From contig JAUSEW010000027.1 of NCBI GenBank assembly GCA_030651475.1, positions 41,553 through 105,552 of the forward strand: DNA of 64,000 nt, written 5' to 3'. This DNA comes from Candidatus Levyibacteriota bacterium (GTDB lineage: Bacteria > Patescibacteriota > Microgenomatia > Levybacterales > UBA12049). How positions within the stretch are numbered: the first letter of the stretch is position 1; each line of letters opens with the position of its first letter. Of this stretch, positions 1,928 to 41,415 are shown piece by piece. Both the position numbers and the translations under genes were made by a program. Under the pieces are notes generated by a model that was not told the origin of the DNA, did no database searches, and saw only the letters and a list, made by a program, of their open reading frames with translations.

Positions 1928-1931
1928 AATT

Positions 1932-15512: not shown

Positions 15513-16100
15513 CTATTGTTTTATCCTATACTCCTCTATTGTTTCAAGATTTCTTTGTGAGAAATAAATAATATTTGTAAAGGCTTGTTTATTTTTTTCG
15601 GGAACTCTTTTAATTAACGATGCGAGCACTTCCTGGTGTTTTAACGAAGCTGTTTTTAATTTTTTAAAAAAATTAGCATTTGGTTTTTGGCGAAACTTAT
15701 ATAATTGCTGAGTTAATAAAGTGTAGTTATTTTCTGCTTTTAAAGCTGTTTGTAGGGCAAGGTCAACCTTATTATTGTCAATAAGCATTGCTGTCGCTAG
15801 AATTCCTTTATCTGTTTGGAGTAGGTAAAATTCGATTTTCTTATTAGGATCTGATATTAAAGATGCAACTATTTTATCCCTAACAACCTTCAGTTTATAT
15901 AAGGGATTATCTGGAAGAATACCTGGATAAGCAAGGTCATATTTAATTATGGTAGATTGAGTTGATTCCTCTGCAAATGAAGTCTGTACAATAGGAAAAA
16001 TAAATAACGAAAATAATATTATAAGTATATGCAATGCGCTTTTTTTTATTTGAGTATTATTAATATAATCGATTATGAATCTAGGCAATAGCATTGTCAA
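15513..16100 (-). CDS. Hypothetical secreted/membrane-anchored protein, DUF5667-like
   Basis: N-terminal hydrophobic helix, then AYPGILPDNPLYKLK, which resembles the LPGDPLY motif of DUF5667 proteins. Otherwise low complexity and Lys-rich. Confidence 0.3.
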   Translation of the reverse strand: MTMLLPRFIIDYINNTQIKKSALHILIILFSLFIFPIVQTSFAEESTQSTIIKYDLAYPGILPDNPLYKLKVVRDKIVASLISDPNKKIEFYLLQTDKGILATAMLIDNNKVDLALQTALKAENNYTLLTQQLYKFRQKPNANFFKKLKTASLKHQEVLASLIKRVPEKNKQAFTNIIYFSQRNLETIEEYRIKQ

Positions 16101-18343
16101 GGTCCAAAAAATTGGAGATTATCAAAATAAAATGACCCTGATGATTTTGTCGCAGTAACATTTAGGGAGACGATAGCGAAGCTTGTGCCATTTGGAGCAA
16201 TTGCAGAAACTGATACTTTTTTCCATTCCGGGTCACCATAAATTCTTGGGGAAAGAGCAACCGCATTACCTGGCAAAATAATTTTGCTTTCCGGGTCTTT
16301 ATAAAAGTCTATTCTTAAAAATCCATCCCTTTCATTCGATTTAAGAATTTGATTGGATTTTATCCAACCCGAAAATGTATATATCTTTCCACCTGTAACG
16401 TTGATTCTTTGAGAAACTATTTTTGGCGCAGTAAAAAAAATATTTTCCCATCTATACTCTAATGCACCTTTTTCAATGCCTTCATTTTTGGCATATAACA
16501 TCTCTACTTTCTTGGAAGGAATTGAATAGGTCTGAAGATGCCAAAAATTCGTGTCATTTATAGTTTCAAATGAAAAGTTTTTAATTAAGTTTTTAGATTC
16601 GGGTAGCAGAGGAGGAAGTTTATAAAATAAAAGATTATCTTGAGCGCACATATCTGGTTTTGACAGTTCTTTTAGCAGCGTTGCTCTTGTTTCGTACTCA
16701 TATAAAGACAAGAGAACGAAATTATTTTCATAGATATCTGATGGGGGAATAAAAAAATCAGTGTCAAATCTATAAGCGTAATATCCCAATGCGTTACTTT
16801 TATTTATAAATGCGTAGTCAGAGTGCGTATCGCGTACTTCTTCGAGGGAAAAATTTTCAGTAGGCTTAATCTCTATCAGTTTATCAAAGTCTTTCGAAGG
16901 AAAAGAAATATATGTTTTGTATGCAACCCTTGGATTATAAGGCATATTATCGGCAATCCACTCTTGGCTTTGCTGATAAACTGTTTTTTGTCCGCAAGCC
17001 CAGCTTGAGCTGAAAGATTGAGTAAAGGGATAATAAAAAACAGAAAGACAAACTATTCCGAAAATAACTTTTGCTTTAACAGTATTAAACTGTTTTATCC
17101 GATTCCAGAAAGTATGGATGAAAACGCCAATAAATAAAGCTAAAAATGGCGTGATGGGTATTGCCAGTCTTTCATATTGCGCGTGCATATAAGAGCTAAT
17201 GTAAATAAAAGTAATAAATGGGATTATTGATAAAAATATAAATTGTTTTGGAAACTTTAGTAAAGTTATTCCTAAGCCGATCAAGGAAGCAATTGTTGGT
17301 ATTTGTCCTAAGCCCTTGAAGAAAATAAAACTCGCATAATAGGGAAGGAATTCATTCGGCGTAAGAGTTGTAATGTTTGGCAATATGCCTTGTCCGTTAG
17401 ACAGAACAAAAGATGCAAGGGACGAGACATAAGTTGATATAGTCGTGCTATACCATGGCAAAACCCATTTTTCCATATCTTGCTGAAAGATGATATGACT
17501 TTGGGAGTTTAGGAAAAGATAGGGTAAGCCGACGAAGATTCCAATGGGCACTGCAATAAAACCAAGTATAATTCTTAACGGCCACATTTTGTTTTTCTGT
17601 TTATCAAGAAGAATTGCAATGGGATAAACAAGTAAAGCAACAGGAAAATACCTAACAGCAGTTGAAAATCCGATCATAAAACCTGAAAGAAGATACCATT
17701 TTAACTTACCTGTTTTAAAAAGATTGACCATAAAAAGAATAGCTAACAAGATAAAGAATGTTGCGGGCACATCTGTTGTGAGATAATGCGAATCGCGAAC
17801 GTGAAACGGAAAAATAGCAAAGGAAAAAGCAGCTAAAAGCGCAATCGGTTTATTTAAAAGCTTCTTAGCTATTAAATAAAGAATAAGCACGCTTGCTGTT
17901 CCTAAAAGCATAACTAATGCTCTTTGAGACCAGAATATCAGCGTTTGGTGTTGACTATATCCAATCTTTGCAACGTATTCGATAAATGAAGGCATCGAAT
18001 AGGTTATGTTAAAAGGTAAAAATACACTCTGTATTCCTTCCATCAGATAGGAGATAAATATAATTGGGAAATACGGAATGGCCGCAAGATAAAAAATGAA
18101 TGACCCGTATTTATATGTATAAGAATTAAAATCGCCTTTTGCAATAATGTTGTAGAATAATTTTTCCGAATATGTTTGCACCCATCCTTCATCAGGGTGA
18201 TTTATGAAGTTGGGATAAAGTCCAAGTATCCGAACAAAGAAAGCAATAAAAAGAATTAATGTTAAAATTTTGTTTCTGCTCATTAATTCCAATATGGGTT
18301 TAACTACATTGCTTAATATCTGTTGAATTTTTTTCTTCTTCAT
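16097..18343 (-). CDS. GT-C membrane glycosyltransferase (PMT/ArnT-like) with a C-terminal beta-sandwich domain that may be carbohydrate-binding (CBM-like)
   Basis: HPDEGWVQTYSE DE motif after TM1. About 12 TM helices in the first ~450 aa. The C-terminal ~180 aa are beta-rich (…GKIYTFSGWIKS…GFLRIDFYKD…) and reminiscent of CBM4/9-type modules. The module family is a guess. Confidence 0.5.
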   Translation of the reverse strand: MKKKKIQQILSNVVKPILELMSRNKILTLILFIAFFVRILGLYPNFINHPDEGWVQTYSEKLFYNIIAKGDFNSYTYKYGSFIFYLAAIPYFPIIFISYLMEGIQSVFLPFNITYSMPSFIEYVAKIGYSQHQTLIFWSQRALVMLLGTASVLILYLIAKKLLNKPIALLAAFSFAIFPFHVRDSHYLTTDVPATFFILLAILFMVNLFKTGKLKWYLLSGFMIGFSTAVRYFPVALLVYPIAILLDKQKNKMWPLRIILGFIAVPIGIFVGLPYLFLNSQSHIIFQQDMEKWVLPWYSTTISTYVSSLASFVLSNGQGILPNITTLTPNEFLPYYASFIFFKGLGQIPTIASLIGLGITLLKFPKQFIFLSIIPFITFIYISSYMHAQYERLAIPITPFLALFIGVFIHTFWNRIKQFNTVKAKVIFGIVCLSVFYYPFTQSFSSSWACGQKTVYQQSQEWIADNMPYNPRVAYKTYISFPSKDFDKLIEIKPTENFSLEEVRDTHSDYAFINKSNALGYYAYRFDTDFFIPPSDIYENNFVLLSLYEYETRATLLKELSKPDMCAQDNLLFYKLPPLLPESKNLIKNFSFETINDTNFWHLQTYSIPSKKVEMLYAKNEGIEKGALEYRWENIFFTAPKIVSQRINVTGGKIYTFSGWIKSNQILKSNERDGFLRIDFYKDPESKIILPGNAVALSPRIYGDPEWKKVSVSAIAPNGTSFAIVSLNVTATKSSGSFYFDNLQFFGP

Positions 18344-20346: not shown

Positions 20347-21168
20347 TTATCTGTAAATTCCAGTTACTAATGCAAGTGCTTTATCAACGCGTTCTATGTT
20401 AGAATCATTATCGGATGAGCGCATCTCTATAGAAATCCATTTATTATCGTTATAATTCAGTTTTTTTAAAACTGCGGCAATTTTTCCATTATCAACTTTC
20501 CCTTCTTTTTCTATGGGTTCAAGGTATGGTTCGCTAATATGAAAATGCTTAAGGATGCTTAAGCCATTTTTTATAGAGTCTTCGTAGGATTCTCTATTTA
20601 TCGTCATAGTGCTTGTGTCAAGATGAAGTCTGAAATGGGGATGATTAACTGCTGTTACCAGTTTTATTGCGTCATTGGTATTGAGGATAAAATCCGCACC
20701 GTACTGCGGAGGATTTGGCTCAATGCAGAAAAATATATTATATGGTCGGCAAATTTCTGCGATTTTGTAAAAAAATTCACAGGCGATTCCTAAAGCTTTA
20801 TTATGTTCTAACCCATTAACTTTTCTATTCTTGGGAGATCCAAATACCATTATTCTGGAGTCTAAAAGAAATGATAAGTGGATAATACGAGAAATGTAGT
20901 CTATGGTTTTTGCCCTTGTTTCTTTAGAATCAAATATGGTTAATTCCGGATGACCAAATAAAAGAGATTGCATAGCGATAATACGAATGCCATTATCTAG
21001 CCAATAATTTTTATATCTTTTTACCTCTTTATCGTTTGCCTCAAGGGGATTTTTCCAAATTTTTGTTGGGGCAACTTCTATTCCGGAAATTTTGTATTTT
21101 TTCAATATCTTTGCAATTTCCCCATCTTCTTCTTTGTTCCAGGCGATATTTGAGATTGCTATATTCAT
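20347..21168 (-). CDS. Xylose-isomerase-like TIM-barrel protein (sugar phosphate isomerase/epimerase family)
   Basis: Overall resemblance to the AP-endonuclease-2/xylose-isomerase-like TIM-barrel family (IAISNIAWNKEED...GIEVAP...). Moderate certainty only. Confidence 0.45.
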   Translation of the reverse strand: MNIAISNIAWNKEEDGEIAKILKKYKISGIEVAPTKIWKNPLEANDKEVKRYKNYWLDNGIRIIAMQSLLFGHPELTIFDSKETRAKTIDYISRIIHLSFLLDSRIMVFGSPKNRKVNGLEHNKALGIACEFFYKIAEICRPYNIFFCIEPNPPQYGADFILNTNDAIKLVTAVNHPHFRLHLDTSTMTINRESYEDSIKNGLSILKHFHISEPYLEPIEKEGKVDNGKIAAVLKKLNYNDNKWISIEMRSSDNDSNIERVDKALALVTGIYR

Positions 21169-21932
21169 TTTATTTTGCTTTTTATAAATTCCTTAAGTTC
21201 ACTTAATGTTACTTCTTTATCGTATAGGTATTTAGTTTTTGACCCATATAAATAACCGTATTTGGTGAGCATGTTATAGTTTACAGGCGGATTTTTCGTA
21301 ACATTAGTAAAATCCAAATCAAGCGTATATTTAGCAACCTCTTTTACGGAAAGAGGCTCTACGGCTAGATGAACTAACTTAAGGGAATTTTTTATAGCGA
21401 GCTGTATGTCTTTCCAGATATTTTCCAAATTGTACCACTGAAACTTGTTTTCTTTATGAATTAAATCCCAGCGGTTATTGTATATTAAGTCAAAAACAGC
21501 ATTTTTTTTAAGGCCTTCGCCAAAAGTTTGCGGCAATCTGATAATAATTGCATTAGGAAACGTTTTTGCTATGAATTTTTCAAGGTTATATCGATTACGT
21601 CCATACCCTTGAGTGAGTTTTGCAGGATTAATCAGAGTATCTTCGTCTACGTTATAGGGGTTTGGATATACATCCACTGTCGATATTAGGATAAAAAGCT
21701 TTGTTTTAATATGTTTCAAGCAATCAATAAATTTCTCAATTTTTTCCCAGTCTTTTTTCGGTTCGAGATTTGCTTGCCATTTCAAAGACGCAGTTGCGGC
21801 GCTTACTACCAAATCGTAGTTTTTACCCCCTATATCTTTAATGTTTTTGGAATTATATAAATCGTCAAATTTTGTTTGTTGGATAAGATTTCCACCAATA
21901 AAACCACTATAGCCTATTAAAGCAGATAACAT
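21165..21932 (-). CDS. Rossmann-fold NAD(P)-binding protein, divergent epimerase/reductase-like (RmlD-like?)
   Basis: N-terminal ALIGYSGFIGGNL glycine-rich motif. Short (255 aa). No clear YxxxK, so the catalytic class is uncertain. Confidence 0.35.
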   Translation of the reverse strand: MLSALIGYSGFIGGNLIQQTKFDDLYNSKNIKDIGGKNYDLVVSAATASLKWQANLEPKKDWEKIEKFIDCLKHIKTKLFILISTVDVYPNPYNVDEDTLINPAKLTQGYGRNRYNLEKFIAKTFPNAIIIRLPQTFGEGLKKNAVFDLIYNNRWDLIHKENKFQWYNLENIWKDIQLAIKNSLKLVHLAVEPLSVKEVAKYTLDLDFTNVTKNPPVNYNMLTKYGYLYGSKTKYLYDKEVTLSELKEFIKSKIK

Positions 21933-21935
21933 AAG

Positions 21936-22931
21936 CTAAACCACATTTACGTTTCGTTTTTTTCTAAGAATTACTGATTTGTCTATCTCATCAGCTATAA
22001 AATAAAGCGGTTCATTTCGGGACTCATTCATTATTCTTATAATGTATTCGGAAATTAGAGTTAATAAGGAAAATAATAGAAAAAACATAGTGCCTAAAAC
22101 CGTAGCGACGCTAATCCAGCCCTGCGGAGCAATATTTTTCCCAAAAAATAATTCAAGTAAAACTATAATAAAGATATAGATTATAAAAAGTAAGCTAAAT
22201 AGCATTCCCAAAAAGCTAAATATTCTCATTGGCCTAAATGAGTTTGAAATAATTATGTCAGCTACATTGAGAAGAAGTACGGGAAAGCTTTCTTTCTTTA
22301 GTTTGTAACGGAAGGTCTTTAAAGGTTTATAATCAACTGCGCACTTTTTAAACCCAATTAGATAGTTGATATAGCTAAAATTTCTGCTTTTTCTTCGTGT
22401 GCGAGTTATAGAATTGATTGCTTTTCTATTCAACGCAATTAAATAATTTTGGCTGTAATAAAATTCGTGGGTGGAGATTTTTTTTACGATTCTCAAAAAA
22501 AGACTGCTTAAGAATCCGTATCTTGTGATATCTTTTGACGGTTTTCCGATTACAACGTCGTAATCTTCCAAAAGCTTATTTGTCAAAACAGCAAGCATTT
22601 CCGGCGGATCCAAATATATATTAAATAAAATAGCGTAATCTCCGATGCAGTTATCAAGTCCCGCTGTTAGAGCGATTTCTTTATCGTATTGTTTAGACAG
22701 CCTTAAAGTTCTAATATAGGGAATAGTTTTTCCTATTTTTCTTATTTCCTGTATTGTGTTATCCAAAGAATTATTATCAACGACCAAAATTTCGTAATCT
22801 ACATCAAGTTTCAAAAGTTCTTTATTTATCTCTTTTAACCTATTTCCCACAATGTCTTCGTCGTTTTCTGTGACGACGATTACGGAAACTATCGCATCTT
22901 GCAGTAATAATTCTCTGTGTTGCTTCTTCAT
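21936..22931 (-). CDS. GT2 polyprenyl-phosphate sugar synthase (GtrB/CsbB-like) with C-terminal TM helices
   Basis: VSVIVVTENDED...YEILVVDNNSLDNT GT-A domain and two C-terminal TM helices (FLGMLFSLLFIIYIFIIVLL... and VATVLGTMFFLLFSLLTLI). Confidence 0.75.
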   Translation of the reverse strand: MKKQHRELLLQDAIVSVIVVTENDEDIVGNRLKEINKELLKLDVDYEILVVDNNSLDNTIQEIRKIGKTIPYIRTLRLSKQYDKEIALTAGLDNCIGDYAILFNIYLDPPEMLAVLTNKLLEDYDVVIGKPSKDITRYGFLSSLFLRIVKKISTHEFYYSQNYLIALNRKAINSITRTRRKSRNFSYINYLIGFKKCAVDYKPLKTFRYKLKKESFPVLLLNVADIIISNSFRPMRIFSFLGMLFSLLFIIYIFIIVLLELFFGKNIAPQGWISVATVLGTMFFLLFSLLTLISEYIIRIMNESRNEPLYFIADEIDKSVILRKKRNVNVV

Positions 22932-23068
22932 TCGCTTTAAATTATATAATATCTGGTTATGTTATGTCTAATTAGATGTGGTGGGAAAGCAAAACCGTTT
23001 CCTCCCAATAGCGGTAGACTAAAAATCTTTGATACATTTGTTTAAAAGAAAGCTGTATAATTGAAGTA
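22932..23068. promoter_or_regulatory. Divergent intergenic region (137 bp) with multiple TATAAT-like boxes and a GGGAAAgcaaaaccgTTTCCtCCC imperfect inverted repeat
   Basis: Lies between 21936..22931(-) and 23069..23827(+). Read directly. Confidence 0.3.
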
Positions 23069-23827
23069 ATGAAGACTACTATCAAAAGCCCAAAAGTAAT
23101 CGGGATTATCTTGACATACAAACACGCATCTTTTTTGGAAGACCTCTATCACAGTTTACCGGAAGGGGTTTTCGATAGCATCATTGTTTCCAATGACGAG
23201 AGTGGAGATAACATTGGCGTTATTGCCGAAAAGCTTGGTATTCCATATTTTTCCCACCCGCGCTTAGGATACGGAGGTAACATTAAATATGGATTACAAA
23301 AAGCTCTTGAAATGGGTGGGGAATATATGGTGGAAATCCACGGAGACGGACAGTATGGTACTTTGGGTATCATCCCGGGAATTCAAAAAATGAAAAAAGG
23401 TTATGATTTTATCTTAGGTTCGAGATTTACAGATTTAAATCTTCCCTTAAAAGATAAAATGCCGTTTCTTAAGTATTTGGCGAATATCGGCTTGAGTTTT
23501 CTTGATCGTCTAATCCTGCGGTTGCCGCTTTCCGAATTCCACACAGGCTTTCGCATCTACAGCCGGCGGCTTTTGACCAAAGCTGACTTAAAACATACAT
23601 CCAATGATCACTTATTTAGTTTTCAGATAATCGCTCTTGCCGCATACCATAATTTAAAAGTAGGGGAGATTCCTGTGAGAGGTGATTATGCTCACGAACA
23701 TAGTTCGATTAGCATTAGGGAGTCTGTTAAATATACCTTTCAGACATTTGACGTTTTAGCGCAGTATCTTTGGACTCGTTTGGGATTTGAGACCAAGCTT
23801 TTTAAACGTAGCAAACACTCTATATAA
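23069..23827 (+). CDS. Glycosyltransferase, GT2 family (DPM1-like)
   Basis: IGIILTYKHASF...SNDESGDN...GSRF...TGFRIY motifs. Confidence 0.7.
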   Translation: MKTTIKSPKVIGIILTYKHASFLEDLYHSLPEGVFDSIIVSNDESGDNIGVIAEKLGIPYFSHPRLGYGGNIKYGLQKALEMGGEYMVEIHGDGQYGTLGIIPGIQKMKKGYDFILGSRFTDLNLPLKDKMPFLKYLANIGLSFLDRLILRLPLSEFHTGFRIYSRRLLTKADLKHTSNDHLFSFQIIALAAYHNLKVGEIPVRGDYAHEHSSISIRESVKYTFQTFDVLAQYLWTRLGFETKLFKRSKHSI

Positions 23828-25055
23828 TTGTTACCTTCGGAATCGGCACTATAAATTTAACGTTTTTGTTTTTTAGCCACGACTCATTTTTCATAATTGA
23901 GGAAGCGTAATTCCATGCCAAAATTAAAACATAATCGGGAAGATTTTTTTTGATGTGTTCAGGCGGTAATATAGGAATGTGTGTGCCTGGAGTAAATTTT
24001 CCCTGTTTAAATGCGGTCGTGTCTGCAATATAGTCAATTATCTCTGTTCCAATCCCGCAATATTGAAGTAAGGTATTGCCCTTGGCAGCTGCGCCATAAC
24101 CTACTATTTTTTTATTTTGTTTTTTTAGACCGATCAACAGTTTCAATAGTTTTTTCTTGATTTTTTGCGGAACAGTGCCGAACTTCTTGTATGTCTTAAG
24201 ATTATGGAGGCCGTTTTCTTCTTCAAGGTTTTGCATTTTCAGGACTCTTTTGTTAACAGGGAACAATAAGGGCTTATGTCCGGCGAATACGCGTATAGAT
24301 CCGCCTTGAGTATCAACACGCTCAACATCAAATATTTGTAATCCCCAGATATCCAAAAGCTTTACCAAGGGGAAAAGTGAAAAATAACAGATATGCTCAT
24401 GGTAGGTGTTATCGAATTCATTTTTCTTAATTAAATCGCCTAAATATTGCACTTCGAATATAAAAATGCCTTTTTCGTCAAGCAATTTTTTCACGCCTGC
24501 AATTATTCCATGCAAGTTGTTTGTATGGGCTAGAATATTATTGGCGGTGATTATACCGGCATGACCGTATTCTTTCACAATATTTTTGGCAACGTTTAGA
24601 TTAAAAAACAGAGCTTTGGTTTCAATACCATTTCTTCTGGCTATTCTAGCAACATTTTTTGCCGGATCAACGCCTAATACCTTAGCGCCTAATTTTTGAA
24701 AATGCTTAAGAAGTATGCCGTCATTGCTGCCAATATCCAGAATGAACTGTTTTGTTTGGGTAGGAAATTTTCTGTAAACATCTTCAGCGTACTTTCTAAA
24801 ATGCTCATGTAACGGTTGTGATGCCCCGGTAAAATAAGCATAGTCTTCAAACAGCATTTTCCTATCGACCCAATCTTTAAGCTGCGCCAGATGACACGCT
24901 GGGCAATAATAAACCCGTAGCGGGAATTTAAGCTCCGGGCGTTTTAGACCCGCCTTATTTAGGCAAGAATTGGCAAGCGCGATTTTACCAAGATCCAAGT
25001 ATTTAATAAGACGTGGATTACTACAGATAATACATTTTTTATTCTTCTTAAGCAT
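23820..25055 (-). CDS. Zinc-ribbon SAM-dependent C-methyltransferase, TylC3/NDP-hexose C-methyltransferase-like (three-domain architecture)
   Basis: N-terminal CIICSN...CPACH zinc ribbon. Central ILDIGSNDGILL motif I. About 150 aa C-terminal extension as in the C-methyltransferase C-terminal domain family. Confidence 0.6.
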   Translation of the reverse strand: MLKKNKKCIICSNPRLIKYLDLGKIALANSCLNKAGLKRPELKFPLRVYYCPACHLAQLKDWVDRKMLFEDYAYFTGASQPLHEHFRKYAEDVYRKFPTQTKQFILDIGSNDGILLKHFQKLGAKVLGVDPAKNVARIARRNGIETKALFFNLNVAKNIVKEYGHAGIITANNILAHTNNLHGIIAGVKKLLDEKGIFIFEVQYLGDLIKKNEFDNTYHEHICYFSLFPLVKLLDIWGLQIFDVERVDTQGGSIRVFAGHKPLLFPVNKRVLKMQNLEEENGLHNLKTYKKFGTVPQKIKKKLLKLLIGLKKQNKKIVGYGAAAKGNTLLQYCGIGTEIIDYIADTTAFKQGKFTPGTHIPILPPEHIKKNLPDYVLILAWNYASSIMKNESWLKNKNVKFIVPIPKVTII

Positions 25056-25108
25056 TAATGTGCATTTTCACATACAATGGGCAAAGAAGTCAAGACGATA
25101 CTTAAGCC

Positions 25109-26740
25109 CTAGTTGGGGTATATAATTTTATATAATTGCTCATCTTGTTCCCCGTTAATTAATTTAAGTCCGGGATAATCTTTGGGGTTAGTTGAAAGAA
25201 ATAAAACAGCAGGATGCAATTCGCCTGGAGTTGCAATAATGTAGTCGGCTTTTTGCAAATGAGCATAAGTCAATAATTCGTTTAAATCCGAAACAACAGG
25301 CGTATATATAATAAGACTTTTGCTGTAAAAGCCATATGCTTCATGCTTTGACATAAGTCTTTTCCCTGGATCATTTTTCATTAACCATTCATCCTGACTA
25401 ATAATGGTAGATTTTTTAATTGATGTATTTTTTATCTCCTTTAGGATCGATGGCGTGTAAAAAGCATTTGATGATAAAAACACAATAAAAAACAATATTA
25501 GACTTACAATATTAAATTTCATTATTTTTTTTTGTATGTAAGACAACTTGATTGATCCAAAAGCTATGCCTAAAGGTATAAGCGGGTATAGCCAGTATAT
25601 ATATCTTTCATCCCCATTGGGAGCAAAAAACATGACAATTTCAAAGAAAATCAAAGGAACCAGGAATAGAAATGTAAATGTATTATAATCGCGAGTTTTA
25701 AAAAGCATCCATATCGCTCCAAAGAAAAAGGCAAGCATGCCAACCGCAGAAAAGTTTTTATATAGATAGGTTTGTGAGAAATAGTCGAATCTGGTATTGG
25801 CATCTCGGAACCACGCTTCATGAGTTTTTGTTAAAATAGAGAAAAATCCTTTGCCAAATTCAGATTTGACATTAAATGTCTCTGTGCTAAAAAAATCCTG
25901 CGCCCAAGTAGAAGTTTTTGCAGTATTAAAATTAAAAGGACTGTGTAGTTGTGCAGCCGCAGACGCTTTTGCGAGAGGAACAGATTGTTTATATTTATTT
26001 TGCATTGCTATTTGATAAGGTAAATATATAATGGAAAATCCTAAAAGTATAAAAATAGAGATTAAGGCAATTTGTTTATGTAATACCTTATTTTTTAGAA
26101 AGAAAAATACAAGATACATTGCTGATGTGAAAAGAAAACTCGTAAATATAAAAATCCCTTCAGCTTTAGTAAGCGCTGCAAAGCTTAAAAATATTCCGGA
26201 AAAGAAAGCAAAAATATTTCTTTTTGTTTGAAAGCACTTTAAATATAAATAAATCCCCATCCATATTAGAAAAACAAGTAATGCTTCCGTAAGTGCTTGG
26301 GTAGAACTATACGCAAGAGATTTAAAGAATATGACAAAAAAGCATATTAAGATTGTGGTAATTCGGCCAAAATAAACCCTTGAGATTAGATATATTGGTA
26401 GAATAAGTAGAGATCCAAAAACCAAAGATACAATTCGACCAGTCAATCCCCAATCCTGTACAAAGAAATGGAAAAGAGCAGATACTATTGGGAAAAACGG
26501 ACTCCACCACGGATGAAAAATTTTTGCAAAATCCCCATCAAGCAAGCTTCTTGCAATGTCCATATAGATAGCATCATCGGAATATAAACCGTAGGATGGT
26601 TGGCTAAAGAGCACAATATACCTAACACTGAAGCTAAGGAAAACAAGAAATAACAAAAGCAATAAGTCAAAATTAAGAAAAATCTTCTTTGATAAAAATT
26701 TGAGAATATGACTTATGCTATTAATTATCTTAATTAACAT
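25109..26740 (-). CDS. GT-C membrane glycosyltransferase, PMT/ArnT-like (GT39/GT83-like)
   Basis: LYSDDAIYMDIARSLLDG DD motif after TM1. Multi-TM N-terminal half and a C-terminal soluble domain. Confidence 0.55.
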   Translation of the reverse strand: MLIKIINSISHILKFLSKKIFLNFDLLLLLFLVFLSFSVRYIVLFSQPSYGLYSDDAIYMDIARSLLDGDFAKIFHPWWSPFFPIVSALFHFFVQDWGLTGRIVSLVFGSLLILPIYLISRVYFGRITTILICFFVIFFKSLAYSSTQALTEALLVFLIWMGIYLYLKCFQTKRNIFAFFSGIFLSFAALTKAEGIFIFTSFLFTSAMYLVFFFLKNKVLHKQIALISIFILLGFSIIYLPYQIAMQNKYKQSVPLAKASAAAQLHSPFNFNTAKTSTWAQDFFSTETFNVKSEFGKGFFSILTKTHEAWFRDANTRFDYFSQTYLYKNFSAVGMLAFFFGAIWMLFKTRDYNTFTFLFLVPLIFFEIVMFFAPNGDERYIYWLYPLIPLGIAFGSIKLSYIQKKIMKFNIVSLILFFIVFLSSNAFYTPSILKEIKNTSIKKSTIISQDEWLMKNDPGKRLMSKHEAYGFYSKSLIIYTPVVSDLNELLTYAHLQKADYIIATPGELHPAVLFLSTNPKDYPGLKLINGEQDEQLYKIIYPN

Positions 26741-26848
26741 TTAATATATATTTATTTACACGTAATTATAGCATACGCAGTAAGGGGATCAAGCGTTAGT
26801 TTATGTATTTTCATTCAGTTTAATAGTATAATGTTTACTTAGGATCTA
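26741..26848. promoter_or_regulatory. Divergent intergenic region with a TATAAT box (agtataatg) about 20 nt upstream of 26849
   Basis: Lies between 25109..26740(-) and 26849..27679(+). Confidence 0.3.
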
Positions 26849-27679
26849 ATGAAAAATATTTTAGTTTCTGCAATTATATCAACGAAGAATGAAGAATCTG
26901 TTATCGAAAAACTTCTTTTAAGCTTGAAAAGGCAAGCATATAAATTTGTTGAAATTATTGTAGTTGATAATAATTCTTCGGATAAGACAAAGATTATCTC
27001 GAAAAAATACGCAGATTTTGTATTTAATAAAGGTCCGGAAAGAAGCGCTCAAAGAAACTTCGGCGCGCAAAAAGGTAAGGGAGAATATTTATTGTTTTTG
27101 GACGCGGATATGGAGTTAACGCCGACAGTAATCGAAGAATGCGTTAAAATAGCTCAAAGTTCATCTTTTGGGGGAGTAATTATTCCGGAAGAATCATTTG
27201 GGAAAGGTTTTTGGGCGAAGGTTAAGGCTTTTGAACGCAGCTTTTATGTAGGAGATACTGCTATGGAAGCAGCGCGTTTTTATTCAAAAAAAGTTTTTAA
27301 TGAATTAGGAAAATTTGACGAAACCATTACGGGGCCAGAAGATTGGGATCTGTCAGACAGAGTAAGTAAAAAGTTTGATATTGGAAGAATAAAAAGTTTC
27401 ATATTGCATAACGAAGGAACGTTGTCCTTATGGAAACTTTTGAAAAAAAAATATTACTATGCAAAAGGAGCAAGAAACTATATATCCAAGAATAAAATTA
27501 GCACTTTTTCTCCAAAGACGATATCCTTTTTAAGGTCGTCATTCTATAGAAATCCCGAAAAGATTATATTTCATCCTATTCTATTTTGTGCTATGATGGT
27601 AATGCTTTTTGCAGAGCTAGTTGCCGGTGGAATCGGTTATTGTAGCACTGCATTTTTTGGTAAAAAAAACAACTTATGA
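26849..27679 (+). CDS. Glycosyltransferase, GT2 family
   Basis: VSAIISTKNEES...EIIVVDNNSSDKT...FLDADMEL motifs. Confidence 0.7.
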   Translation: MKNILVSAIISTKNEESVIEKLLLSLKRQAYKFVEIIVVDNNSSDKTKIISKKYADFVFNKGPERSAQRNFGAQKGKGEYLLFLDADMELTPTVIEECVKIAQSSSFGGVIIPEESFGKGFWAKVKAFERSFYVGDTAMEAARFYSKKVFNELGKFDETITGPEDWDLSDRVSKKFDIGRIKSFILHNEGTLSLWKLLKKKYYYAKGARNYISKNKISTFSPKTISFLRSSFYRNPEKIIFHPILFCAMMVMLFAELVAGGIGYCSTAFFGKKNNL

Positions 27680-28665
27680 AAAAAATCTTAGTAACTGGCG
27701 GAGCAGGCTATATAGGTTCCGTATTGACTGCAGATTTACTGGATAAGGGATTTAAAGTTAGAGTATTTGATAGATTTATGTTTGGGGGAGAAAGTCTGCT
27801 TTCTTTCGTAAACAACAAGAATCTCGAGATTTTGAAGGGAGACGTGAGGGATAGCGATAGGCTTAAAATTGCAGTTAACGGTGTAGATAGCATAATTCAT
27901 TTAGCTGCATTGGTCGGGGAACCTGCCTGCAGGGAAAATCCAAAGGTTACGAAAGAAATTAACCATAAAGCAGCAGGGGAATTAGCGAGTCTTGCTAGAG
28001 AAAACGGCGTAGAACGCTTCATTTTCGTATCCACATGCAGTAATTATGGAATTTCTAAAGCAAATGAAAAGGCTACGGAAGAATCGGAGCTTAACCCGCT
28101 TTCTTTATACGCGGAGACAAAAATTGAAGCGGAGAAGTTTATTTTAGGGTTAACTTCTGATAATTTTCATCCAACCGTTCTTAGACTTGCTACCATATTC
28201 GGATTATCTCCAAGAATGAGATTTAATCTAATGGTAAATGAAGTAGCAAGAGAGACTGCAGTGAGTGGTAAATTTTCCATATATAATAAAAACGCGTGGA
28301 GGCCATTTCTTCACGTCCAAGATGTAAGCAATGCATTCCTAACGGTTTTACAGTCAAGTAATAATCAAATAAGTGGGAAGATTTTTAATGTTGTCGGAGA
28401 GAATATCCAAAAGGCTTATCTTATAGAACTTGCCAAGAAATTTAATCCGCAGTTTGAGATTGAAGTAAATGAAAGCGGGAAAGACGACAAGAGGGACTAT
28501 AGAGTATCAGCAAATAAAATTATGGATAAACTAGGCTGGAAACCAAGAATAACTGTTAAGGATGGATTTTTGGAAATATTTAATGCCGTAAGAAATGGTT
28601 TATTTTTAGATCCGTATGAGTTCAGATATAATGCTTGGTTTGATAATAAAGTATTTAAAAGATGA
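27676..28665 (+). CDS. NAD-dependent sugar-nucleotide epimerase/dehydratase (extended SDR)
   Basis: ILVTGGAGYIGSVL and YAETK motifs. Confidence 0.75.
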   Translation: MKKILVTGGAGYIGSVLTADLLDKGFKVRVFDRFMFGGESLLSFVNNKNLEILKGDVRDSDRLKIAVNGVDSIIHLAALVGEPACRENPKVTKEINHKAAGELASLARENGVERFIFVSTCSNYGISKANEKATEESELNPLSLYAETKIEAEKFILGLTSDNFHPTVLRLATIFGLSPRMRFNLMVNEVARETAVSGKFSIYNKNAWRPFLHVQDVSNAFLTVLQSSNNQISGKIFNVVGENIQKAYLIELAKKFNPQFEIEVNESGKDDKRDYRVSANKIMDKLGWKPRITVKDGFLEIFNAVRNGLFLDPYEFRYNAWFDNKVFKR

Positions 28666-29390
28666 AAAATATTATCGAAAAATTAAAGATTTACGGTCCC
28701 AAAACTTTTTTTTCATTCGCTATAAGCGAATTAAGAAATAAATTATTAATGCAATTAATAAAAGGATCTTATAGCCAGAAGGGCGAAGATTTGATAATCG
28801 ATAAGCTTCTCGAAAATAAAAAAAGAGGTTTCTATGTAGACGTAGGAGCTTATGATCCGAAACGCTTTAGCAATACCTATCGTTTTTACCAAAAGGGATG
28901 GCGCGGAATAAATATAGAACCAGATACACTTAATTACGAAAAGTTTTTAGCTGAAAGGAATAGAGATACAAATCTTAATATTGGAGTGGGAAATGGGGAA
29001 TCGAGTTTGGTTTTTTATAAATTTGTTCCGGATACGCTTTCTACATTTTCGAAAAAAGAGGCAGGGGAGTACAAAAAACAAGGATACAGATTGGTAGACA
29101 CAATAAAAGTTAAAATAGAGAGTCTTTCTAGTATATTTTCAAAATATTGCAAAAACAAAAAGATTGATTTTATTTCTGTGGATACAGAGGGTTATGATTT
29201 GGAAGTGCTTAAAAGCAACGATTGGGATAAATTTAGGCCGACTCTAATATGTGTCGAATCATTTGAACACCATAAAGGCGGGGGAAAAGCTATAGAATAC
29301 GATTACATAGAGCCTTTTTTGTCTAAAGTTGGATATAAGAAAGTTTTTGAAAACGGACTAAACTGTATCTACACGCTTAAAAGCGTTTAA
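28662..29390 (+). CDS. FkbM-family methyltransferase
   Basis: FYVDVGAYDPKRFSNTYRF (DVGAxxG-type) motif typical of FkbM methyltransferases. Confidence 0.65.
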   Translation: MKNIIEKLKIYGPKTFFSFAISELRNKLLMQLIKGSYSQKGEDLIIDKLLENKKRGFYVDVGAYDPKRFSNTYRFYQKGWRGINIEPDTLNYEKFLAERNRDTNLNIGVGNGESSLVFYKFVPDTLSTFSKKEAGEYKKQGYRLVDTIKVKIESLSSIFSKYCKNKKIDFISVDTEGYDLEVLKSNDWDKFRPTLICVESFEHHKGGGKAIEYDYIEPFLSKVGYKKVFENGLNCIYTLKSV

Positions 29391-29393
29391 TGT

Positions 29394-30476
29394 ATGAAGA
29401 TTATTAGACAGATGGATCCCTGGATTGACAGGGAAGAAGAAAAAGAAGTAATTAAGGTGATGCGATCCGGATGGATAACTGAGGCTGACGAGACAAAAAG
29501 ATTTGAAAAGATGATCGCAGATTTTACAGGGAGTAAGTATTGTTCTGTCGTAACTAATGGAACCGTAAGTCTCTATCTCGCACTTAAAGCATTAGGAATT
29601 GGGGAGGGGGATGAGGTCATCGTGCCGGACATGACAATGGTAGCTTCTCCAAATGCGGTTATTATGGCGAATGCAAAACCTGTTTTTGTAGACATTGAGA
29701 AAGACACATTATGTCTTTCCTTAGATGAGGTTGAAAAAAAGATTTCTAAAAAAACTAAAGCAATTATGATTGTTGCTCTTAACGGTAGAGCGCCTGATAT
29801 GCATAGAGCTCTTAAAATCGCAAAAGACAATAATCTATTTGTTGTTGAGGATGCAGCGCAAGCTCTTGGCTCTTACTTTCATGGAAAACATTTGGGAACG
29901 TTTGGGGATATCGGAAGTTTCTCATTCAGTACCCCAAAAGTGATTACAACAGCCCAAGGAGGAGCGCTTGTTACCGACAGAAAAGACCTTTACGATAAGA
30001 TAATCCGACTGAAAGATTTTGGGAGAGTTAATAGATCATCCCAAAATCACGATGAAATTGGTTTTAATTTTAAGTTTACAGATATTCTCGCAGCAATAGG
30101 AGTCGTACAGATGAAAAAGCTGCCAACGAGGCTTAATAGAAAAAAAGAGATGTACAATAGCTACAAGCAAGAGCTTAAGAATCTAAAGCAAATACAATTT
30201 ATAGCTACAGATCTTTCTCAAACATCTCCTTGGTTTATGGATATTTTTGTTTCCGATCCAAAGGCTCTTCAAGGTTTTCTGAAAAACAAAAATATAGGAA
30301 CCAGACTTTTTTATCCTGCTATTCATACAACCGAACCGTATAAATCAGAAAATCAATATAAAAATTCTTTATGGGCATCGGAGCATGGATTATGGCTTCC
30401 ATCATCAGCTTTCTTAACAGATTCTGATATAATGCATATCTGCAAAGAAATAAAAAGTTTTTATGAAAAAAACTGA
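29394..30476 (+). CDS. DegT/DnrJ/EryC1-family PLP-dependent sugar aminotransferase
   Basis: SFSFSTPKVITTAQGGALVT with Lys present. N-terminal small-domain motifs. Confidence 0.8.
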   Translation: MKIIRQMDPWIDREEEKEVIKVMRSGWITEADETKRFEKMIADFTGSKYCSVVTNGTVSLYLALKALGIGEGDEVIVPDMTMVASPNAVIMANAKPVFVDIEKDTLCLSLDEVEKKISKKTKAIMIVALNGRAPDMHRALKIAKDNNLFVVEDAAQALGSYFHGKHLGTFGDIGSFSFSTPKVITTAQGGALVTDRKDLYDKIIRLKDFGRVNRSSQNHDEIGFNFKFTDILAAIGVVQMKKLPTRLNRKKEMYNSYKQELKNLKQIQFIATDLSQTSPWFMDIFVSDPKALQGFLKNKNIGTRLFYPAIHTTEPYKSENQYKNSLWASEHGLWLPSSAFLTDSDIMHICKEIKSFYEKN

Positions 30477-31545
30477 ACAAGATATCAAAAAAATTCTTAA
30501 CAACAGAACAGTTCTTATAACAGGAGCAGATGGTTTTGTTGCCTCACATCTGACGGAAAAGTTAGTGGAGTACGGATCGAATGTTCACATATTAATTCGA
30601 GCAACTTCTTCCGGAATGCTGCATAATCTTCCCCATCTCAGGGGGAAAATGGTTGTTCATCATGGAGACTTAACAGACAAGCAGGCAATAAAGGAAGTAT
30701 TGAAGATAATAAAAAACGAGGGACCAAAACCGATCATATTTCACTTAGGGGCGCAGGCCCATGTTGGCGAATCTTGGAAAAGATCGTATGAGACATTTAA
30801 CACAAATGCTCTTGGAACATTAAATCTTTTGCAAACAATTGTCGATTTAGATATTGATCTATTTAAGTTGGATACGGCTGGAACCTCTGAAGAATATGGC
30901 AATGTAAATCCTGAAGTTAAAGATCAATACAGATTTGATAAAAATGGTGGTCTTATCTTGGATGAGAAATCACCTTTAAATCCACAGAGTATCTATGCCA
31001 CATCCAAAGTAGCGGCAGATTTTCTAACTCGAAATTTTTATGGTGGATATGGAATTCCTACAGTCGTAACAAGAATGTTCAATAACTATGGTCCTAGACA
31101 GAATCCAAGATTTATAACTGGAACAATCATAACGCAAGCTTTAGATAAGGATTCAGTTGAATTGGGTACTCTAACCCCAAAAAGAGATTTTTGCTTTGTA
31201 GAGGATGGAGCGATGGGACATATAAATGTTGCGCTTTTTGGTAATCCTGGAGAAGTGTATGTTTATGGTTATGGAGAAACGATCTCAATTGGAGATTGGT
31301 ACAACCTGATTATAGAGGTGGGGCGTGAAGAAGGATATTGGAAAGACAAAAAATTAATAAATCGAGCAAGCGGAAAAAGAGGTAGGCTTGGGAAAAGCGA
31401 AGTTGAAGAATTGAGAGTTGACTATACGAAATTAAATAAGCTTACGGGTTGGACTCCAAAATTTTCATGGAAAGAAGGACTTGCAGAAACCATCAAATGG
31501 TATGCTGAAAATAAGGATAAGTGGATAGGGAGGATAGATTGGTAA
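30463..31545 (+). CDS. Gmd-like NDP-hexose 4,6-dehydratase (GDP-mannose 4,6-dehydratase family)
   Basis: Matches remembered E. coli Gmd along its length: VLITGADGFVASHL, IRATSSG, HHGDLTD, HLGAQAHV, TSEEYG, YATSKV...FNNYGPRQ. Contains an unusual ~40 aa insertion. Confidence 0.6.
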   Translation: MKKTEQDIKKILNNRTVLITGADGFVASHLTEKLVEYGSNVHILIRATSSGMLHNLPHLRGKMVVHHGDLTDKQAIKEVLKIIKNEGPKPIIFHLGAQAHVGESWKRSYETFNTNALGTLNLLQTIVDLDIDLFKLDTAGTSEEYGNVNPEVKDQYRFDKNGGLILDEKSPLNPQSIYATSKVAADFLTRNFYGGYGIPTVVTRMFNNYGPRQNPRFITGTIITQALDKDSVELGTLTPKRDFCFVEDGAMGHINVALFGNPGEVYVYGYGETISIGDWYNLIIEVGREEGYWKDKKLINRASGKRGRLGKSEVEELRVDYTKLNKLTGWTPKFSWKEGLAETIKWYAENKDKWIGRIDW

Positions 31546-31546
31546 A

Positions 31547-32479
31547 ATGATTAATGTTGGATTTTGGAAAAACAAAAAGATTCTCGTAACAGGCGGGAAA
31601 GGGTTTGTTGGTAGTCACGTAATTGATAATCTTATAAAAAAGCGTAAAGTTAATCCCTCTGATATCGTGGTTCCGGACAGTAGTAAATTTGACCTTCGTT
31701 TATTTGATAGCGCAAAAAGAGTTGTTAGGGGAATTGACATAGTGTTGCATCTTGCTGCTGACGTTGGAGGTATTGGATACAGCAGCAGTCATCCTGCGAC
31801 CCAAATGAGGAATTGTTTTTTGATGGATGCGAATATATTTGAAGCCGCAGCGAAAGAAAAAGTGCAAAAGTTCGTTTGCGTATCTTCTGCGGTAGCGTAT
31901 CCTGTTGATGCCATATCACCTCTTAATGAAAAAGATTTATTCAAAGGTGAGCCGGCTAAAGGTGGATATGGCTACGGTTTTGCTAAAAGGATGTCAGTTG
32001 TTATGACTAGGGCTTATAAGGAAGAAAAAGGATTAAATGCCTGCGTTTTGCTTTCAGCAAATAGTTATGGACCAAGACAGGATTTTGATTTGGAAAGCGG
32101 TCATGTTATACCTTCATTAATACGGAAATGCTTTACGTTTGAAAGGCTTGAGGTTTGGGGAGACGGAAGTCAAATTAGAGATTTTTTCTACGTCAAAGAT
32201 TTCGCAGAGGGTATTGTCTTAGCAGCTGAAAAACTCGAAGGTTCGGAACCCGTGAATATAGGTTCAGGATCAGGAACAAGCATAAAAGAACTAGTAAAAT
32301 TGATTGTTAGACTAACGGGTTTTAAAGATGAAGTATATTTTGATACAACAAAACCACAAGGGCAAAAAATAAGGGTTGTAGATATTAATAGGGCACGAAA
32401 ATTAATGGGTTTTAAACCCAAATACTCGTTAGAAAAAGGTCTTTTAGAAACGATTAGTTGGTACAAAAAGAGTTTATGA
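31547..32479 (+). CDS. GDP-4-keto-6-deoxymannose 3,5-epimerase/4-reductase family (GDP-L-fucose synthase Fcl/ColC-like)
   Basis: Collinear with remembered E. coli Fcl: [31 protein letters not shown] (cf. [24 protein letters not shown]), [24 protein letters not shown]. Confidence 0.7.
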
Positions 32480-33036
32480 ATATTGTTAGCATTTATTACA
32501 AGCTTAGCGCTCTGCTTGGTAATTTTAAAAAATTACTTTTCATTAATAGCTATCAGGCCGGCAAAAATTTTAAACTGGGTTTTAGCGGAGGAATAATAGG
32601 GGATAAAGAGAAGATAATTATTGGCAATAATGTAGGTTTATCGGGTTGGTTAATAAGCGACGGAGGAAAAATTATAGTAGGAGATAATACGATAATAAAT
32701 AAAAATACCATTATAAGATCAATGAGGTTGGTCAAAATTGGAAAATATTGTGATATTGCCAGTGATTGTGCGATTCAGGATCACAACAGCAGATCCTTAG
32801 ATTATAGGGAGAGGAGAAAATATATGCTGACTGGTAATTTCGACGAGAAAGTTTTAAACTCTCCCGTTATTATAGGAGATGACGTCTGGATTGGTCGTAG
32901 GGTAACTATTCTGAAGGGAGTTACCGTAGGAAATGGAGCAATTTTAGCAACAAATGCTGTTGTTACGAAAGATGTTCCTTCATTATCTATCGTCGCCGGC
33001 AATCCCGCTAAAATAGTTAAGAAACTAGATTATTAA
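32476..33036 (+). CDS. Hexapeptide-repeat (left-handed beta-helix) acetyltransferase
   Basis: [37 protein letters not shown] hexapeptide repeats. The start is set at the ATGA overlap (32476); an in-frame upstream ATG at 32458 overlaps the previous gene by 22 nt. Confidence 0.7.
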
Positions 33037-34062: not shown

Positions 34063-35274
34063 ATGCTTAAAAGCAATCAGGGAACAATAAATAAAAAAAT
34101 ATTGTATGCAGAGGCAGTATATGGAGATGAAGAAAAACAGGCGGTAATGCGTTCAATGGACAACAAATGGTTGGCTTCAGGTCCTTTGGTTAAAGAATTC
34201 GAAGAAAAGGTAGCTAAACTTTTTGGGAAAAAATATGGAATTGCCGTAAATTCCGGTTCTTCGGCAGATCTTCTTGCGATTCAAAGTCTCCGTCTTCCGA
34301 AAGGCGCTGAAGTAATTACTCCGGCGTGCACATTTTCAACTACTGTTTCCTCCATTGTTCACAATAATCTAGTCCCTGTTTTTATAGATACTGTGATTGG
34401 CAGATATACCATTAATGAAGATTTGGTAGAAAAAGCTATTACAAAAAAAACCAAAATTATTTTTGTTCCTCAATTAGTTGGTGGCGTTTGCGATATGGCT
34501 AGGCTTAGAAAAATAGCTAACAAACATAATCTTATTTTAATAGACGATTCTTGTGATACATTCGCTCCTTATTTTAATTCCAAAACTGCGGCTTCATATA
34601 GCGATTTAACAACGACCTCATTCTATGGATCACACATAATTACGGCTCTTGGATTTGGCGGAATGGTTTTGGTCGATGACGAAAAACTAAGGGACAGAAT
34701 TTATACTCTTCGTGATTGGGGTAGAGTAGGAAACGATAAAGAAGCATTCGAAAATAGATTTAATTTTTCTATAGACGAAATTCCATATGATGCAAAATTT
34801 CTTTATTCGGAGCTTGGATATAACTTAAAAATGAATGAGGCAGCTGCGGCATTTGGTCTTGTGCAGTTAAGAAGGTTGGATGGTTTTCTAAAGAAACGTA
34901 CCTATAACTTTAAAAAACTTAAAAAATTCTTTAGTAAATATGAGAAGTGGTTTGTTCTTCCTTATCTTCTGGAAGGAGCGCAAACAAATTGGCTTGCTTT
35001 TCCTTTGACGGTTAAAAAAGATGCGCCTTTTTCCCGTTATGATTTTTTGAAACATATGGAATCTAAAGGGATTCAAACAAGAGTACTTTTTTCAGGAAAT
35101 ATCGTTAGGCACCCGGTCTATAAAGATATTAAATTTAAGGTTAGTGGATCGTTAAAAAATGCAGATACCATTATGGCATCCTCTTTATTATTGGGTTGCC
35201 ATCAAGCTCTTACAGACACAGACATAGATTACATTGCCAAATCTGCAGACGAATTCTTCAAGAGATATGCTTAA
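34063..35274 (+). CDS. DegT-family PLP/PMP enzyme with His replacing the active-site Lys: candidate NDP-4-keto-6-deoxyhexose 3-dehydratase (ColD/E1-like)
   Basis: Aligns with the DegT fold but reads SFYGSHIITALGFGG where the paralogs have SFxxxK. His-for-Lys is the known hallmark of ColD and E1 dehydratases. Confidence 0.55.
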   Translation: MLKSNQGTINKKILYAEAVYGDEEKQAVMRSMDNKWLASGPLVKEFEEKVAKLFGKKYGIAVNSGSSADLLAIQSLRLPKGAEVITPACTFSTTVSSIVHNNLVPVFIDTVIGRYTINEDLVEKAITKKTKIIFVPQLVGGVCDMARLRKIANKHNLILIDDSCDTFAPYFNSKTAASYSDLTTTSFYGSHIITALGFGGMVLVDDEKLRDRIYTLRDWGRVGNDKEAFENRFNFSIDEIPYDAKFLYSELGYNLKMNEAAAAFGLVQLRRLDGFLKKRTYNFKKLKKFFSKYEKWFVLPYLLEGAQTNWLAFPLTVKKDAPFSRYDFLKHMESKGIQTRVLFSGNIVRHPVYKDIKFKVSGSLKNADTIMASSLLLGCHQALTDTDIDYIAKSADEFFKRYA

Positions 35275-40870: not shown

Positions 40871-41415
40871 AAAATTGATGGTCCCGGTTGGGTCTCTATG
40901 AATTCTAATTTAATACTCCCAAACATCTCCTGAGTATATAGTTTTTTACCTCCCGGAAGATTAACATAGGTATTCCCACTCAATGCTTTTATAATATCTT
41001 TAATTCCATCCACGAATTTACCGTGTGGAATTTCTGATGATAAATAAATAGGCGTCTTAATTTTTAAGACTTGACATATGGCCTTAATAGTTAGATAAAT
41101 ATTATGACTTAATGTATATTTTTGATCCATTATGTCTACAAAAAGGGAATATATATGATAATTAAATCTAGGGGTAAATAGGCGAAACCTTTTTTTATCC
41201 GCCTCAATGTCTTTAAAATAACATTCATTAATTTTGGCATAATCTGAATGTTTTCTTAACCGAAAAGTAAATAGTTTAGGAAAATAATTTCGATTAATCC
41301 AACCGCCTTTTATATATTTAGCGTCATCATATAAAACAAATTTATCAACACTTTTAATGAGCTTAAAAAATCCAGGATACGGAAATAAATAGGGTTGCAT
41401 AACAGCAATTTTCAT
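40858..41415 (-). CDS. WbqC-like family protein (function unknown; recurrently linked to amino-sugar/formyltransferase genes)
   Basis: N-terminus MKIAVMQPYLFPYPGFFKLIKSVDKFVLYDD matches my memory of the WbqC-like family N-terminus. Confidence 0.5.
   Translation of the reverse strand: MKIAVMQPYLFPYPGFFKLIKSVDKFVLYDDAKYIKGGWINRNYFPKLFTFRLRKHSDYAKINECYFKDIEADKKRFRLFTPRFNYHIYSLFVDIMDQKYTLSHNIYLTIKAICQVLKIKTPIYLSSEIPHGKFVDGIKDIIKALSGNTYVNLPGGKKLYTQEMFGSIKLEFIETQPGPSILCSL

Follow-up and report, generated by a model that had tools for sequence, protein, structure and literature searches.

The best-known branched-chain deoxysugars occur in actinomycete antibiotics and in a few lipopolysaccharides. 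The enzymes TylC3, EryBIII and NovU are reported to share an architecture that combines a Methyltransf_13 with a Methyltransf_14 domain; NovU methylates C-5, and NovU-type enzymes belong to the same family. In TcaB9, the residues Tyr76, His181, Tyr222, Glu224 and His225 are said to contact the sugar, an account that goes back to Bruender et al. in 2010. TcaB9 (tetronitrose) and KijD1 (kijanose) are C-3'-methyltransferases that act on 3-amino-2,3,6-trideoxy-4-keto substrates. MtmC, from mithramycin biosynthesis in Streptomyces argillaceus, methylates C-3 of a 3-hydroxy-4-keto-6-deoxy sugar (PMC10269268). Here we compare with MtmC, TcaB9 and KijD1 a 411-amino-acid protein encoded in a 64-kb stretch of DNA (34.5% G+C; the whole stretch is called the window below) from a Candidatus Levybacteria metagenome-assembled genome, together with its gene neighbourhood and a shorter, 298-amino-acid methyltransferase encoded in the same window.

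The 411-codon open reading frame occupies positions 23820..25055 of the minus strand; the original prediction had given no strand. The protein is 100% identical to NCBI entry MDO8621186.1, and the 298-residue protein is identical to MDO8621168.1 from the same 252,992-bp contig, both of which are named merely "class I SAM-dependent methyltransferase". Pfam divides the longer protein into three domains, each matching above its gathering score: an N-terminal zinc-ribbon domain (residues 8-69, 24849..25034; Methyltransf_13, PF08421, E 1.2e-15), a class I domain that binds S-adenosylmethionine (SAM) (residues 84-241, 24333..24806; Methyltransf_23, PF13489, E 1.5e-16) and a C-methyltransferase C-terminal domain (residues 249-406, 23838..24311; Methyltransf_14, PF08484, E 2e-56). 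The two CxxC pairs of the ribbon read C8-I-I-C11 and C51-P-A-C54, and the SAM motif ILDIGSNDG spans residues 104-112. The ribbon, the SAM motif and the C-terminal extension are therefore all present as first described, and the extension, which an O- or N-methyltransferase might have carried in another form, matches Methyltransf_14 over its full length (2-160 of 160 model positions). NCBIfam holds no specific model for the protein; only sub-threshold matches to UbiG and BioC were returned.

Three solved structures align with the protein from end to end: MtmC (4RV9, E 2.6e-87), which is the top PDB match and covers residues 8-411, KijD1 (5T64, E 6.7e-76) and TcaB9 (3NDI, E 4.5e-72). In all three enzymes the zinc ligands line up with C8, C11, C51 and C54, cysteines that 117-119 of the 120 nearest homologs share. 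Residues Y72, H177, Y218, E220 and H221 align with the TcaB9 positions listed above, in the same order. Together, the zinc cysteines and these five residues recur in 117-120 of the 120 homologs and vary little or not at all in a 37-sequence alignment (A3), where H177 and the run Tyr218-His219-Glu220-His221 are strictly invariant. The sugar-contact roles described for TcaB9 are consistent with mutant entries in the PDB: a Y76F variant, and 4e2y, which carries Glu to Gln at the position matching E220. The C-terminal domain also contains the motifs GYGA.AKG, D.T..KQ and AWN, common to all three solved enzymes.

Because the three domains, the zinc cysteines and the sugar and catalytic residues are all in place, we assign the protein with high confidence to the TylC3/MtmC/TcaB9 family, as a predicted zinc-containing, SAM-dependent nucleoside diphosphate (NDP)-hexose C-methyltransferase. 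The initial reading as a TylC3-like three-domain C-methyltransferase is borne out by the Pfam matches, the solved C-3 enzymes, the conserved residues and the Rml-type neighbours of its orthologs described below. The closest solved counterpart is MtmC, which shares the three-domain layout, the four zinc cysteines and the Tyr-His-Glu-His motif. MtmC differs in using a 2,6-dideoxy substrate, in belonging to an actinomycete antibiotic pathway and in acting also as an NADPH-dependent 4-ketoreductase; the protein studied here instead sits in a cell-surface glycan island of a member of the candidate phyla radiation (CPR).

The family is large: when 8,000 candidates were scored, at least 7,928 reached E<=1e-20. 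Those close homologs that carry a name belong to Levy-, Davies-, Pace- and Doudnabacteria and to Parcubacteria, all of them CPR. A single-protein scan of genome contigs yielded 4 loci; neighbourhood statistics were taken instead from an alignment-based metagenome scan, and the counts below refer to 49 related metagenomic and genomic loci, each with at least 1.5 kb on either side. Individual loci are numbered with the prefix L. Close orthologs, 54-67% identical, were found in L001, L003, L005, L006, L015 and L016. A further locus, L008 (CAYPUE010000001.1, 80.6 kb), is syntenic with the window across about 20 kb, most of its proteins being 83-95% identical and two more diverged ones 53% and 59%. 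Despite this synteny with Levybacteria, L008 carries the label "uncultured Gammaproteobacteria", probably through wrong taxonomic labelling or a mistake in binning.

By analogy with the solved enzymes, the 411-residue protein would bind an NDP-4-keto-6-deoxyhexose. The cluster of His177, Tyr218 and Glu220-His221 would remove the proton beside the 4-keto group, and the resulting enolate would attack the methyl group of SAM. The branched-chain product would be an NDP-3-C-methyl-4-keto-6-deoxyhexose, which a short-chain dehydrogenase/reductase (SDR) would then reduce at C-4. The most likely site of methylation, on the same analogy, is C-3. Methylation at C-5 by a NovU-type enzyme, following 3,5-epimerisation and leading to a 5,5-gem-dimethyl (noviose-like) sugar, could draw on the RmlC-like cupin that the window encodes at 6014..6571, and RmlC-like genes also occur in a few related loci (L023, L044, L076 and L090). 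Yet the cupin gene lies 17 kb from the C-methyltransferase, in a module that travels with the short methyltransferase; close orthologs have no RmlC-like neighbour, and every solved relative at E<1e-70 is a C-3 enzyme. We consider C-5 methylation very unlikely.

The identity of residue 219 bears on the substituent at C-3. This residue is His in MtmC and in 120 of 120 homologs, and Asp in the 3-amino-sugar enzymes TcaB9 and KijD1, which otherwise show full-length similarity and matching sugar and catalytic residues. His219, together with MtmC as the best PDB match, weakly favours a 3-hydroxy substrate, and we infer that the sugar most likely keeps its 3-hydroxyl, as for MtmC and TylC3, in place of a 3-amino group. 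The alternative is a TcaB9/KijD1-type reaction on a 3-amino-4-keto substrate, supplied by the DegT aminotransferase of the operon that diverges from the C-methyltransferase (26849..33036). This operon encodes a glycosyltransferase of family 2 (GT2), an SDR, an FkbM methyltransferase, DegT, a 4,6-dehydratase-like SDR, an Fcl-like SDR and a hexapeptide acyltransferase (32458..33036), and the last of these could later N-acetylate a 3-amino-3-C-methyl deoxysugar. TcaB9 and KijD1 are strong full-length matches, and the operon keeps its placement relative to the C-methyltransferase in L008. No operon of this type, however, stands beside the 54-67% identical orthologs in L001, L003, L005, L006, L015 and L016, a DegT gene occurs within 3 kb in just 6 of the 49 loci, and Pfam scans of the window revealed no 2,3-dehydratase domain. 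With residue 219 also on the side of MtmC, an amino-sugar substrate is unlikely.

The gene neighbours of the orthologs bear on how the substrate is made. An SDR gene lies within 200 bp of the C-methyltransferase in 30 of the 49 loci and within 3 kb in 43. In L001, the 65%-identical ortholog is divergent from an RmlA-like gene and RmlB, the latter scoring 377 bits against a curated cutoff of 365, and the orthologs in L005, L006 and L016 are followed by a gene for an RmlD-like reductase, which scores 196 bits in L005. Given these neighbours, the simplest substrate in the nearest relatives would be dTDP-4-keto-6-deoxyglucose, made from dTDP-glucose via RmlA and RmlB, and the product a dTDP-6-deoxy-3-C-methylhexose. 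In a Levybacteria subgroup (L007, L017 and L018), a GDP-type nucleotidyltransferase is found nearby instead.

Within the window, SDR genes lie 1.9-6 kb from the C-methyltransferase. One of them, at 21165..21932 on the minus strand, encodes a short, 255-residue SDR-like protein that matches Pfam Epimerase weakly (1.9e-4) as well as RmlD_sub_bind, and that carries the GxxGxxG motif as GYSGFIG and the YxxxK motif as YNLEK. It resembles the RmlD-like gene of L005 in BLASTP (E 1e-4), and a phmmer search of the PDB returned no match. On these motifs and matches we tentatively regard it as a candidate 4-ketoreductase. A second possibility, by analogy with MtmC, is that the C-methyltransferase is itself bifunctional and could carry out the C-4 reduction.

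The most consistent neighbour of close C-methyltransferase orthologs, ahead of the sugar-nucleotide enzymes, is a small GT2. In the window this gene lies at 23069..23827 on the plus strand and encodes 252 amino acids; it is convergent with the C-methyltransferase gene, and the 3' ends of the two overlap by 8 bp. Orthologs of the GT2 adjoin the C-methyltransferase at 54-64% identity in L001, L003/L004, L005, L006, L015 and L016 and at 92% in L008. The two genes are thus neighbours in seven independent loci, in most of them on opposite strands and convergent. In addition, when the top 120 homologs of each protein were listed, 16 entries agreed in the size of the longest contig.

Matches of the PpgS/DPMS/GtrB/ArnC type, the class to which its GT-A catalytic domain is most similar, make this GT2 a candidate polyprenyl-phosphate sugar synthase. 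Its sole NCBIfam match is PpgS (polyprenyl-phospho-GalNAc synthase, E 3.7e-17). A plain phmmer search of the PDB found nothing, so that profile and fold searches were needed: the family profile matched DPMS (1.1e-8) and GtrB (1.9e-4), and in Foldseek the AlphaFold model (pLDDT 90) had DPMS, GtrB and ArnC as its top folds, with TMq of 0.65-0.72.

The gene directly upstream of the C-methyltransferase, 53 bp away and in the same orientation, encodes a 543-residue PMT/ArnT-like GT-C membrane glycosyltransferase (25109..26740, minus strand; Pfam PMT 3.4e-9, PMT_2 1.3e-5) and lies 1.3 kb from the GT2. A plain phmmer search of the PDB with this protein gave no match. The arrangement is retained in L008, where the GT-C protein is 91% identical. 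Two of the loci, L004 and L005, carry GtrA genes; in L003, L005 and L006 the GT2 is followed by large multi-pass membrane proteins. The PMT-like GT-C stands in the window where L001, L003, L005 and L006 have large membrane proteins; BLASTP and tblastn searches of the window with those proteins, with the 225-241-residue proteins of unknown type and with GtrA from these four loci found no match. A promoter and terminator scan of 22800..27000 stayed at the shuffled background (20 versus 16.1 +/- 4.1) and is uninformative on operon structure.

These neighbours suggest how the sugar might reach the cell surface. The GT2 would load the finished C-methyl sugar onto polyprenyl monophosphate and, after flipping, the upstream PMT/ArnT-like GT-C would attach it to a cell-surface acceptor. 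The conserved GT2, the GtrA genes of orthologous loci and the adjoining GT-C follow the same gene logic as the mycobacterial PpgS/Rv3632/Rv3779 scheme, in which sugars are delivered on a lipid monophosphate (PMC9671496). Like that system, and like GtrB/GtrA/GtrV and ArnC/ArnT, the locus has a small GT2 and an adjoining GT-C, with GtrA-like genes in orthologous loci; the cargo would differ, being a C-methyl-branched 6-deoxyhexose, and no GtrA is seen in the window. For the route through GT2 and then GT-C our support is tentative, in a nearly balanced case.

Taking enzyme identity, sugar and delivery route together, we hold the reading set out above with moderate confidence, and several observations weigh against it. 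No nucleotidyltransferase was found in the whole 64-kb window, and no clear RmlB or other dehydratase adjoins the C-methyltransferase gene there. The nearest 4,6-dehydratase-like SDRs are 2.6-6 kb off, in the divergent operon with the DegT aminotransferase, a grouping that would fit an amino-sugar substrate. C-3 and C-5 methylation cannot be told apart from sequence, the solved references compared being C-3 enzymes alone. The GT2 scores 62.5 bits against a PpgS cutoff of 370, which makes it a distant relative and no PpgS ortholog, and glucosyl-3-phosphoglycerate synthases also match its fold well (TMq about 0.60-0.64). No GtrA homolog was detected in the window by tblastn. Finally, the C-methyltransferase and GT2 genes are convergent and not co-transcribed.

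Some of these observations bear on a different fate of the sugar, in which the C-methyl NDP-sugar is used directly by a cytoplasmic Leloir transferase to build a diphosphate-linked repeat unit flipped by Wzx, the neighbouring GT2 being an ordinary transferase. GT2 and GT4 genes are abundant in the window, which also encodes a Wzx-like flippase (6568..7830), the GT2 falls under every curated family cutoff, and the missing GtrA points the same way. Against this, the proteins that the GT2 matches best, in sequence and in fold, are without exception polyprenyl-phosphate glycosyltransferases. GtrA accompanies it in L004 and L005, as do large multi-pass membrane proteins in L003, L005 and L006, and in the window a GT-C gene is its neighbour. 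Direct use in a repeat unit is, in our view, somewhat unlikely, and we continue to prefer delivery on a lipid monophosphate.

The 298-residue protein (4009..4905, plus strand) had been described as a shorter zinc-ribbon paralog of the C-methyltransferase. It does carry two CxxC pairs, C6-A-L-C9 and C49-Q-K-C52, and the SAM motif LEIGCGNG at residues 106-113. All four cysteines are conserved across the family (in 104-120 of the 120 closest homologs), which led us to reject a chance origin of the pairs. Only generic class I methyltransferase models of Pfam match the protein: Methyltransf_13 (PF08421) is absent at E<=0.01 and PF08484 is absent as well, neither domain is present in any of the 120 homologs (precomputed domains), and the chain stops about 50 residues past the methyltransferase core. 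In BLASTP, the two proteins share 21% identity (E 4e-5). Comparison of the two families by hhalign gave a probability of 98.6% and an E-value of 9.4e-16 (residues 2-248 versus 4-248), pairing C6/C9/C49/C52 with C8/C11/C51/C54, the two SAM motifs, and E220-H221 with E220-H221; these residues are kept in homologs. For the AlphaFold model (pLDDT 88.9), the best Foldseek query coverage was reached by MtmC, KijD1 and TcaB9 (TMq 0.58-0.63), with other class I methyltransferases at 0.42-0.52.

Low BLASTP identity, a significant profile-profile match and the absence of Methyltransf_14 identify the 298-residue protein, at the level of sequence, as a distant two-domain relative of the C-methyltransferase family that is without its C-terminal domain. 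Of the paralogy first proposed, distant homology, the zinc ribbon and the Glu-His dyad stand; a recent duplication does not. The two families sometimes co-localise: in a second Levybacteria-type context (L007/L009, L017 and L018), C-methyltransferases 55-56% identical to the one in the window are accompanied by an overlapping upstream SDR and a downstream SDR, and a homolog of the short zinc-ribbon methyltransferase (30-33% identity) and a GDP-type nucleotidyltransferase lie within about 1-3 kb. L018 has a second C-methyltransferase copy, convergent with a 42%-identical GT2.

Divergent from the short methyltransferase gene is an operon on the minus strand (986..4010) that encodes, by Pfam, an SDR (3060..4010), proteins resembling the N-terminal (2441..3103) and pyrimidine-binding (transketolase-pyr, 1932..2444) parts of transketolase, and a GT2 (986..1927). 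The same gene order recurs beside short-methyltransferase homologs in L013 and L014; the module is conserved in CPR. The combination of a split thiamine diphosphate enzyme with an adjoining NDP-sugar SDR suggests a sugar that is chain-extended or carries a two-carbon branch. In comparison, pyruvate dehydrogenase E1 (PDH-E1)-like enzymes make C-4 acetyl-branched octoses (PMC4753412).

Two further methyltransferase genes lie in the window: an FkbM-family gene at 28662..29390 on the plus strand (Methyltransf_21 E 2.1e-26, with a TIGR01444 match) and one for a 220-residue class I methyltransferase at 41415..42077 on the minus strand (Methyltransf_23 E 1.2e-14). The original prediction had assigned four methylation activities to one glycan system. 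All four genes exist; their assignment to a single system is not supported, because two of the methyltransferase modules travel independently and the window holds many separate glycan elements. The pair of C-methyltransferase and GT2, and the module of short methyltransferase, SDR, split transketolase and GT2, are each found alone in other CPR genomes. About 20 glycosyltransferases are encoded in the window, and at least four genes are of the PMT-like GT-C type. Four DegT genes are present as well, and there is also an RfbH-like gene, a module of formyltransferase and WbqC, and a carbamoyltransferase. A set of independent surface modifications is a likelier reading than one glycan system.

Among these other elements, the PMT/ArnT-like GT-C genes lie at 9690..11876, 16097..18343, 25109..26740 and 59867..61339, with a YfhO-like fragment at 52..933, an unusually high density for lipid-carrier-dependent extracytoplasmic glycosyltransferases. 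The 220-residue methyltransferase belongs to a minus-strand module (40232..43835) that also encodes DegT, a protein with a marginal GH32-N match, WbqC and an N-formyltransferase with an N_formyltrans_C dimerisation domain, and that looks like a pathway to an N-formyl or N-acyl amino sugar. At 34063..35274, a DegT-family protein resembling RfbH (CDP-6-deoxy-4-hexulose 3-dehydrase; 373 bits against a cutoff of 423) hints at a 3,6-dideoxyhexose branch; no cytidylyltransferase is seen in the window. A NodU/CmcH-type carbamoyltransferase with Carbam_trans_N and Carbam_trans_C domains is encoded at 45011..46735, and carbamoyltransferases also occur near the C-methyltransferase homolog of L011 (Arcobacter) and the short-methyltransferase homolog of L013. 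Downstream of the C-methyltransferase region, between a GT2 and the SDR-like gene, a xylose-isomerase-like TIM-barrel protein is encoded at 20347..21168 (AP_endonuc_2 E 2.7e-19). A plus-strand run at 46713..53320 comprises genes for a 1132-residue protein (weak DUF5667), a 125-residue protein and a 639-residue protein without a Pfam match, followed by a GT2 (52394..53320). A similar order stands beside the C-methyltransferase of L001, with proteins of 1142, 132 and 533 residues and the PpgS-like GT2; in BLASTP, these proteins show no similarity to the open reading frames of the window.

The 411-residue protein can now be named a sugar C-methyltransferase, beyond its generic public annotation. 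Judged by its sequence it is an ordinary, previously under-annotated member of a well-characterised family, and its predicted reaction is the expected one. Several thousand family members, with the named closest matches all in CPR, suggest that branched-chain sugars are common on the surfaces of these ultra-small, mostly uncultured bacteria. The genes for RmlA, RmlB, the C-methyltransferase, the RmlD-like reductase and the GT2 form a compact set for glycoengineering.

More interesting, though unproven, are the conserved pairing of the C-methyltransferase with a PpgS-like GT2 across CPR and the two-domain zinc-ribbon offshoot tied to a split transketolase. The pairing with a PpgS/DPMS-like GT2 offers a concrete hypothesis for the path of the sugar to the surface. 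In its widest form, which we put forward as a possibility with more doubt than conviction, Patescibacteria would commonly decorate their surface with a C-methyl-branched 6-deoxyhexose that is not part of a repeat unit, using the C-methyltransferase/GT2 pair, polyprenyl monophosphate and an extracellular GT-C; in parallel, the 298-residue protein would be a two-domain offshoot acting with the SDR and split transketolase on another branched sugar. We know of no reported case of a C-methyl-branched 6-deoxyhexose on a lipid-monophosphate carrier. If this proposal is true, the sugar would be the first branched-chain sugar known on a PpgS/GtrB/ArnC-type route.

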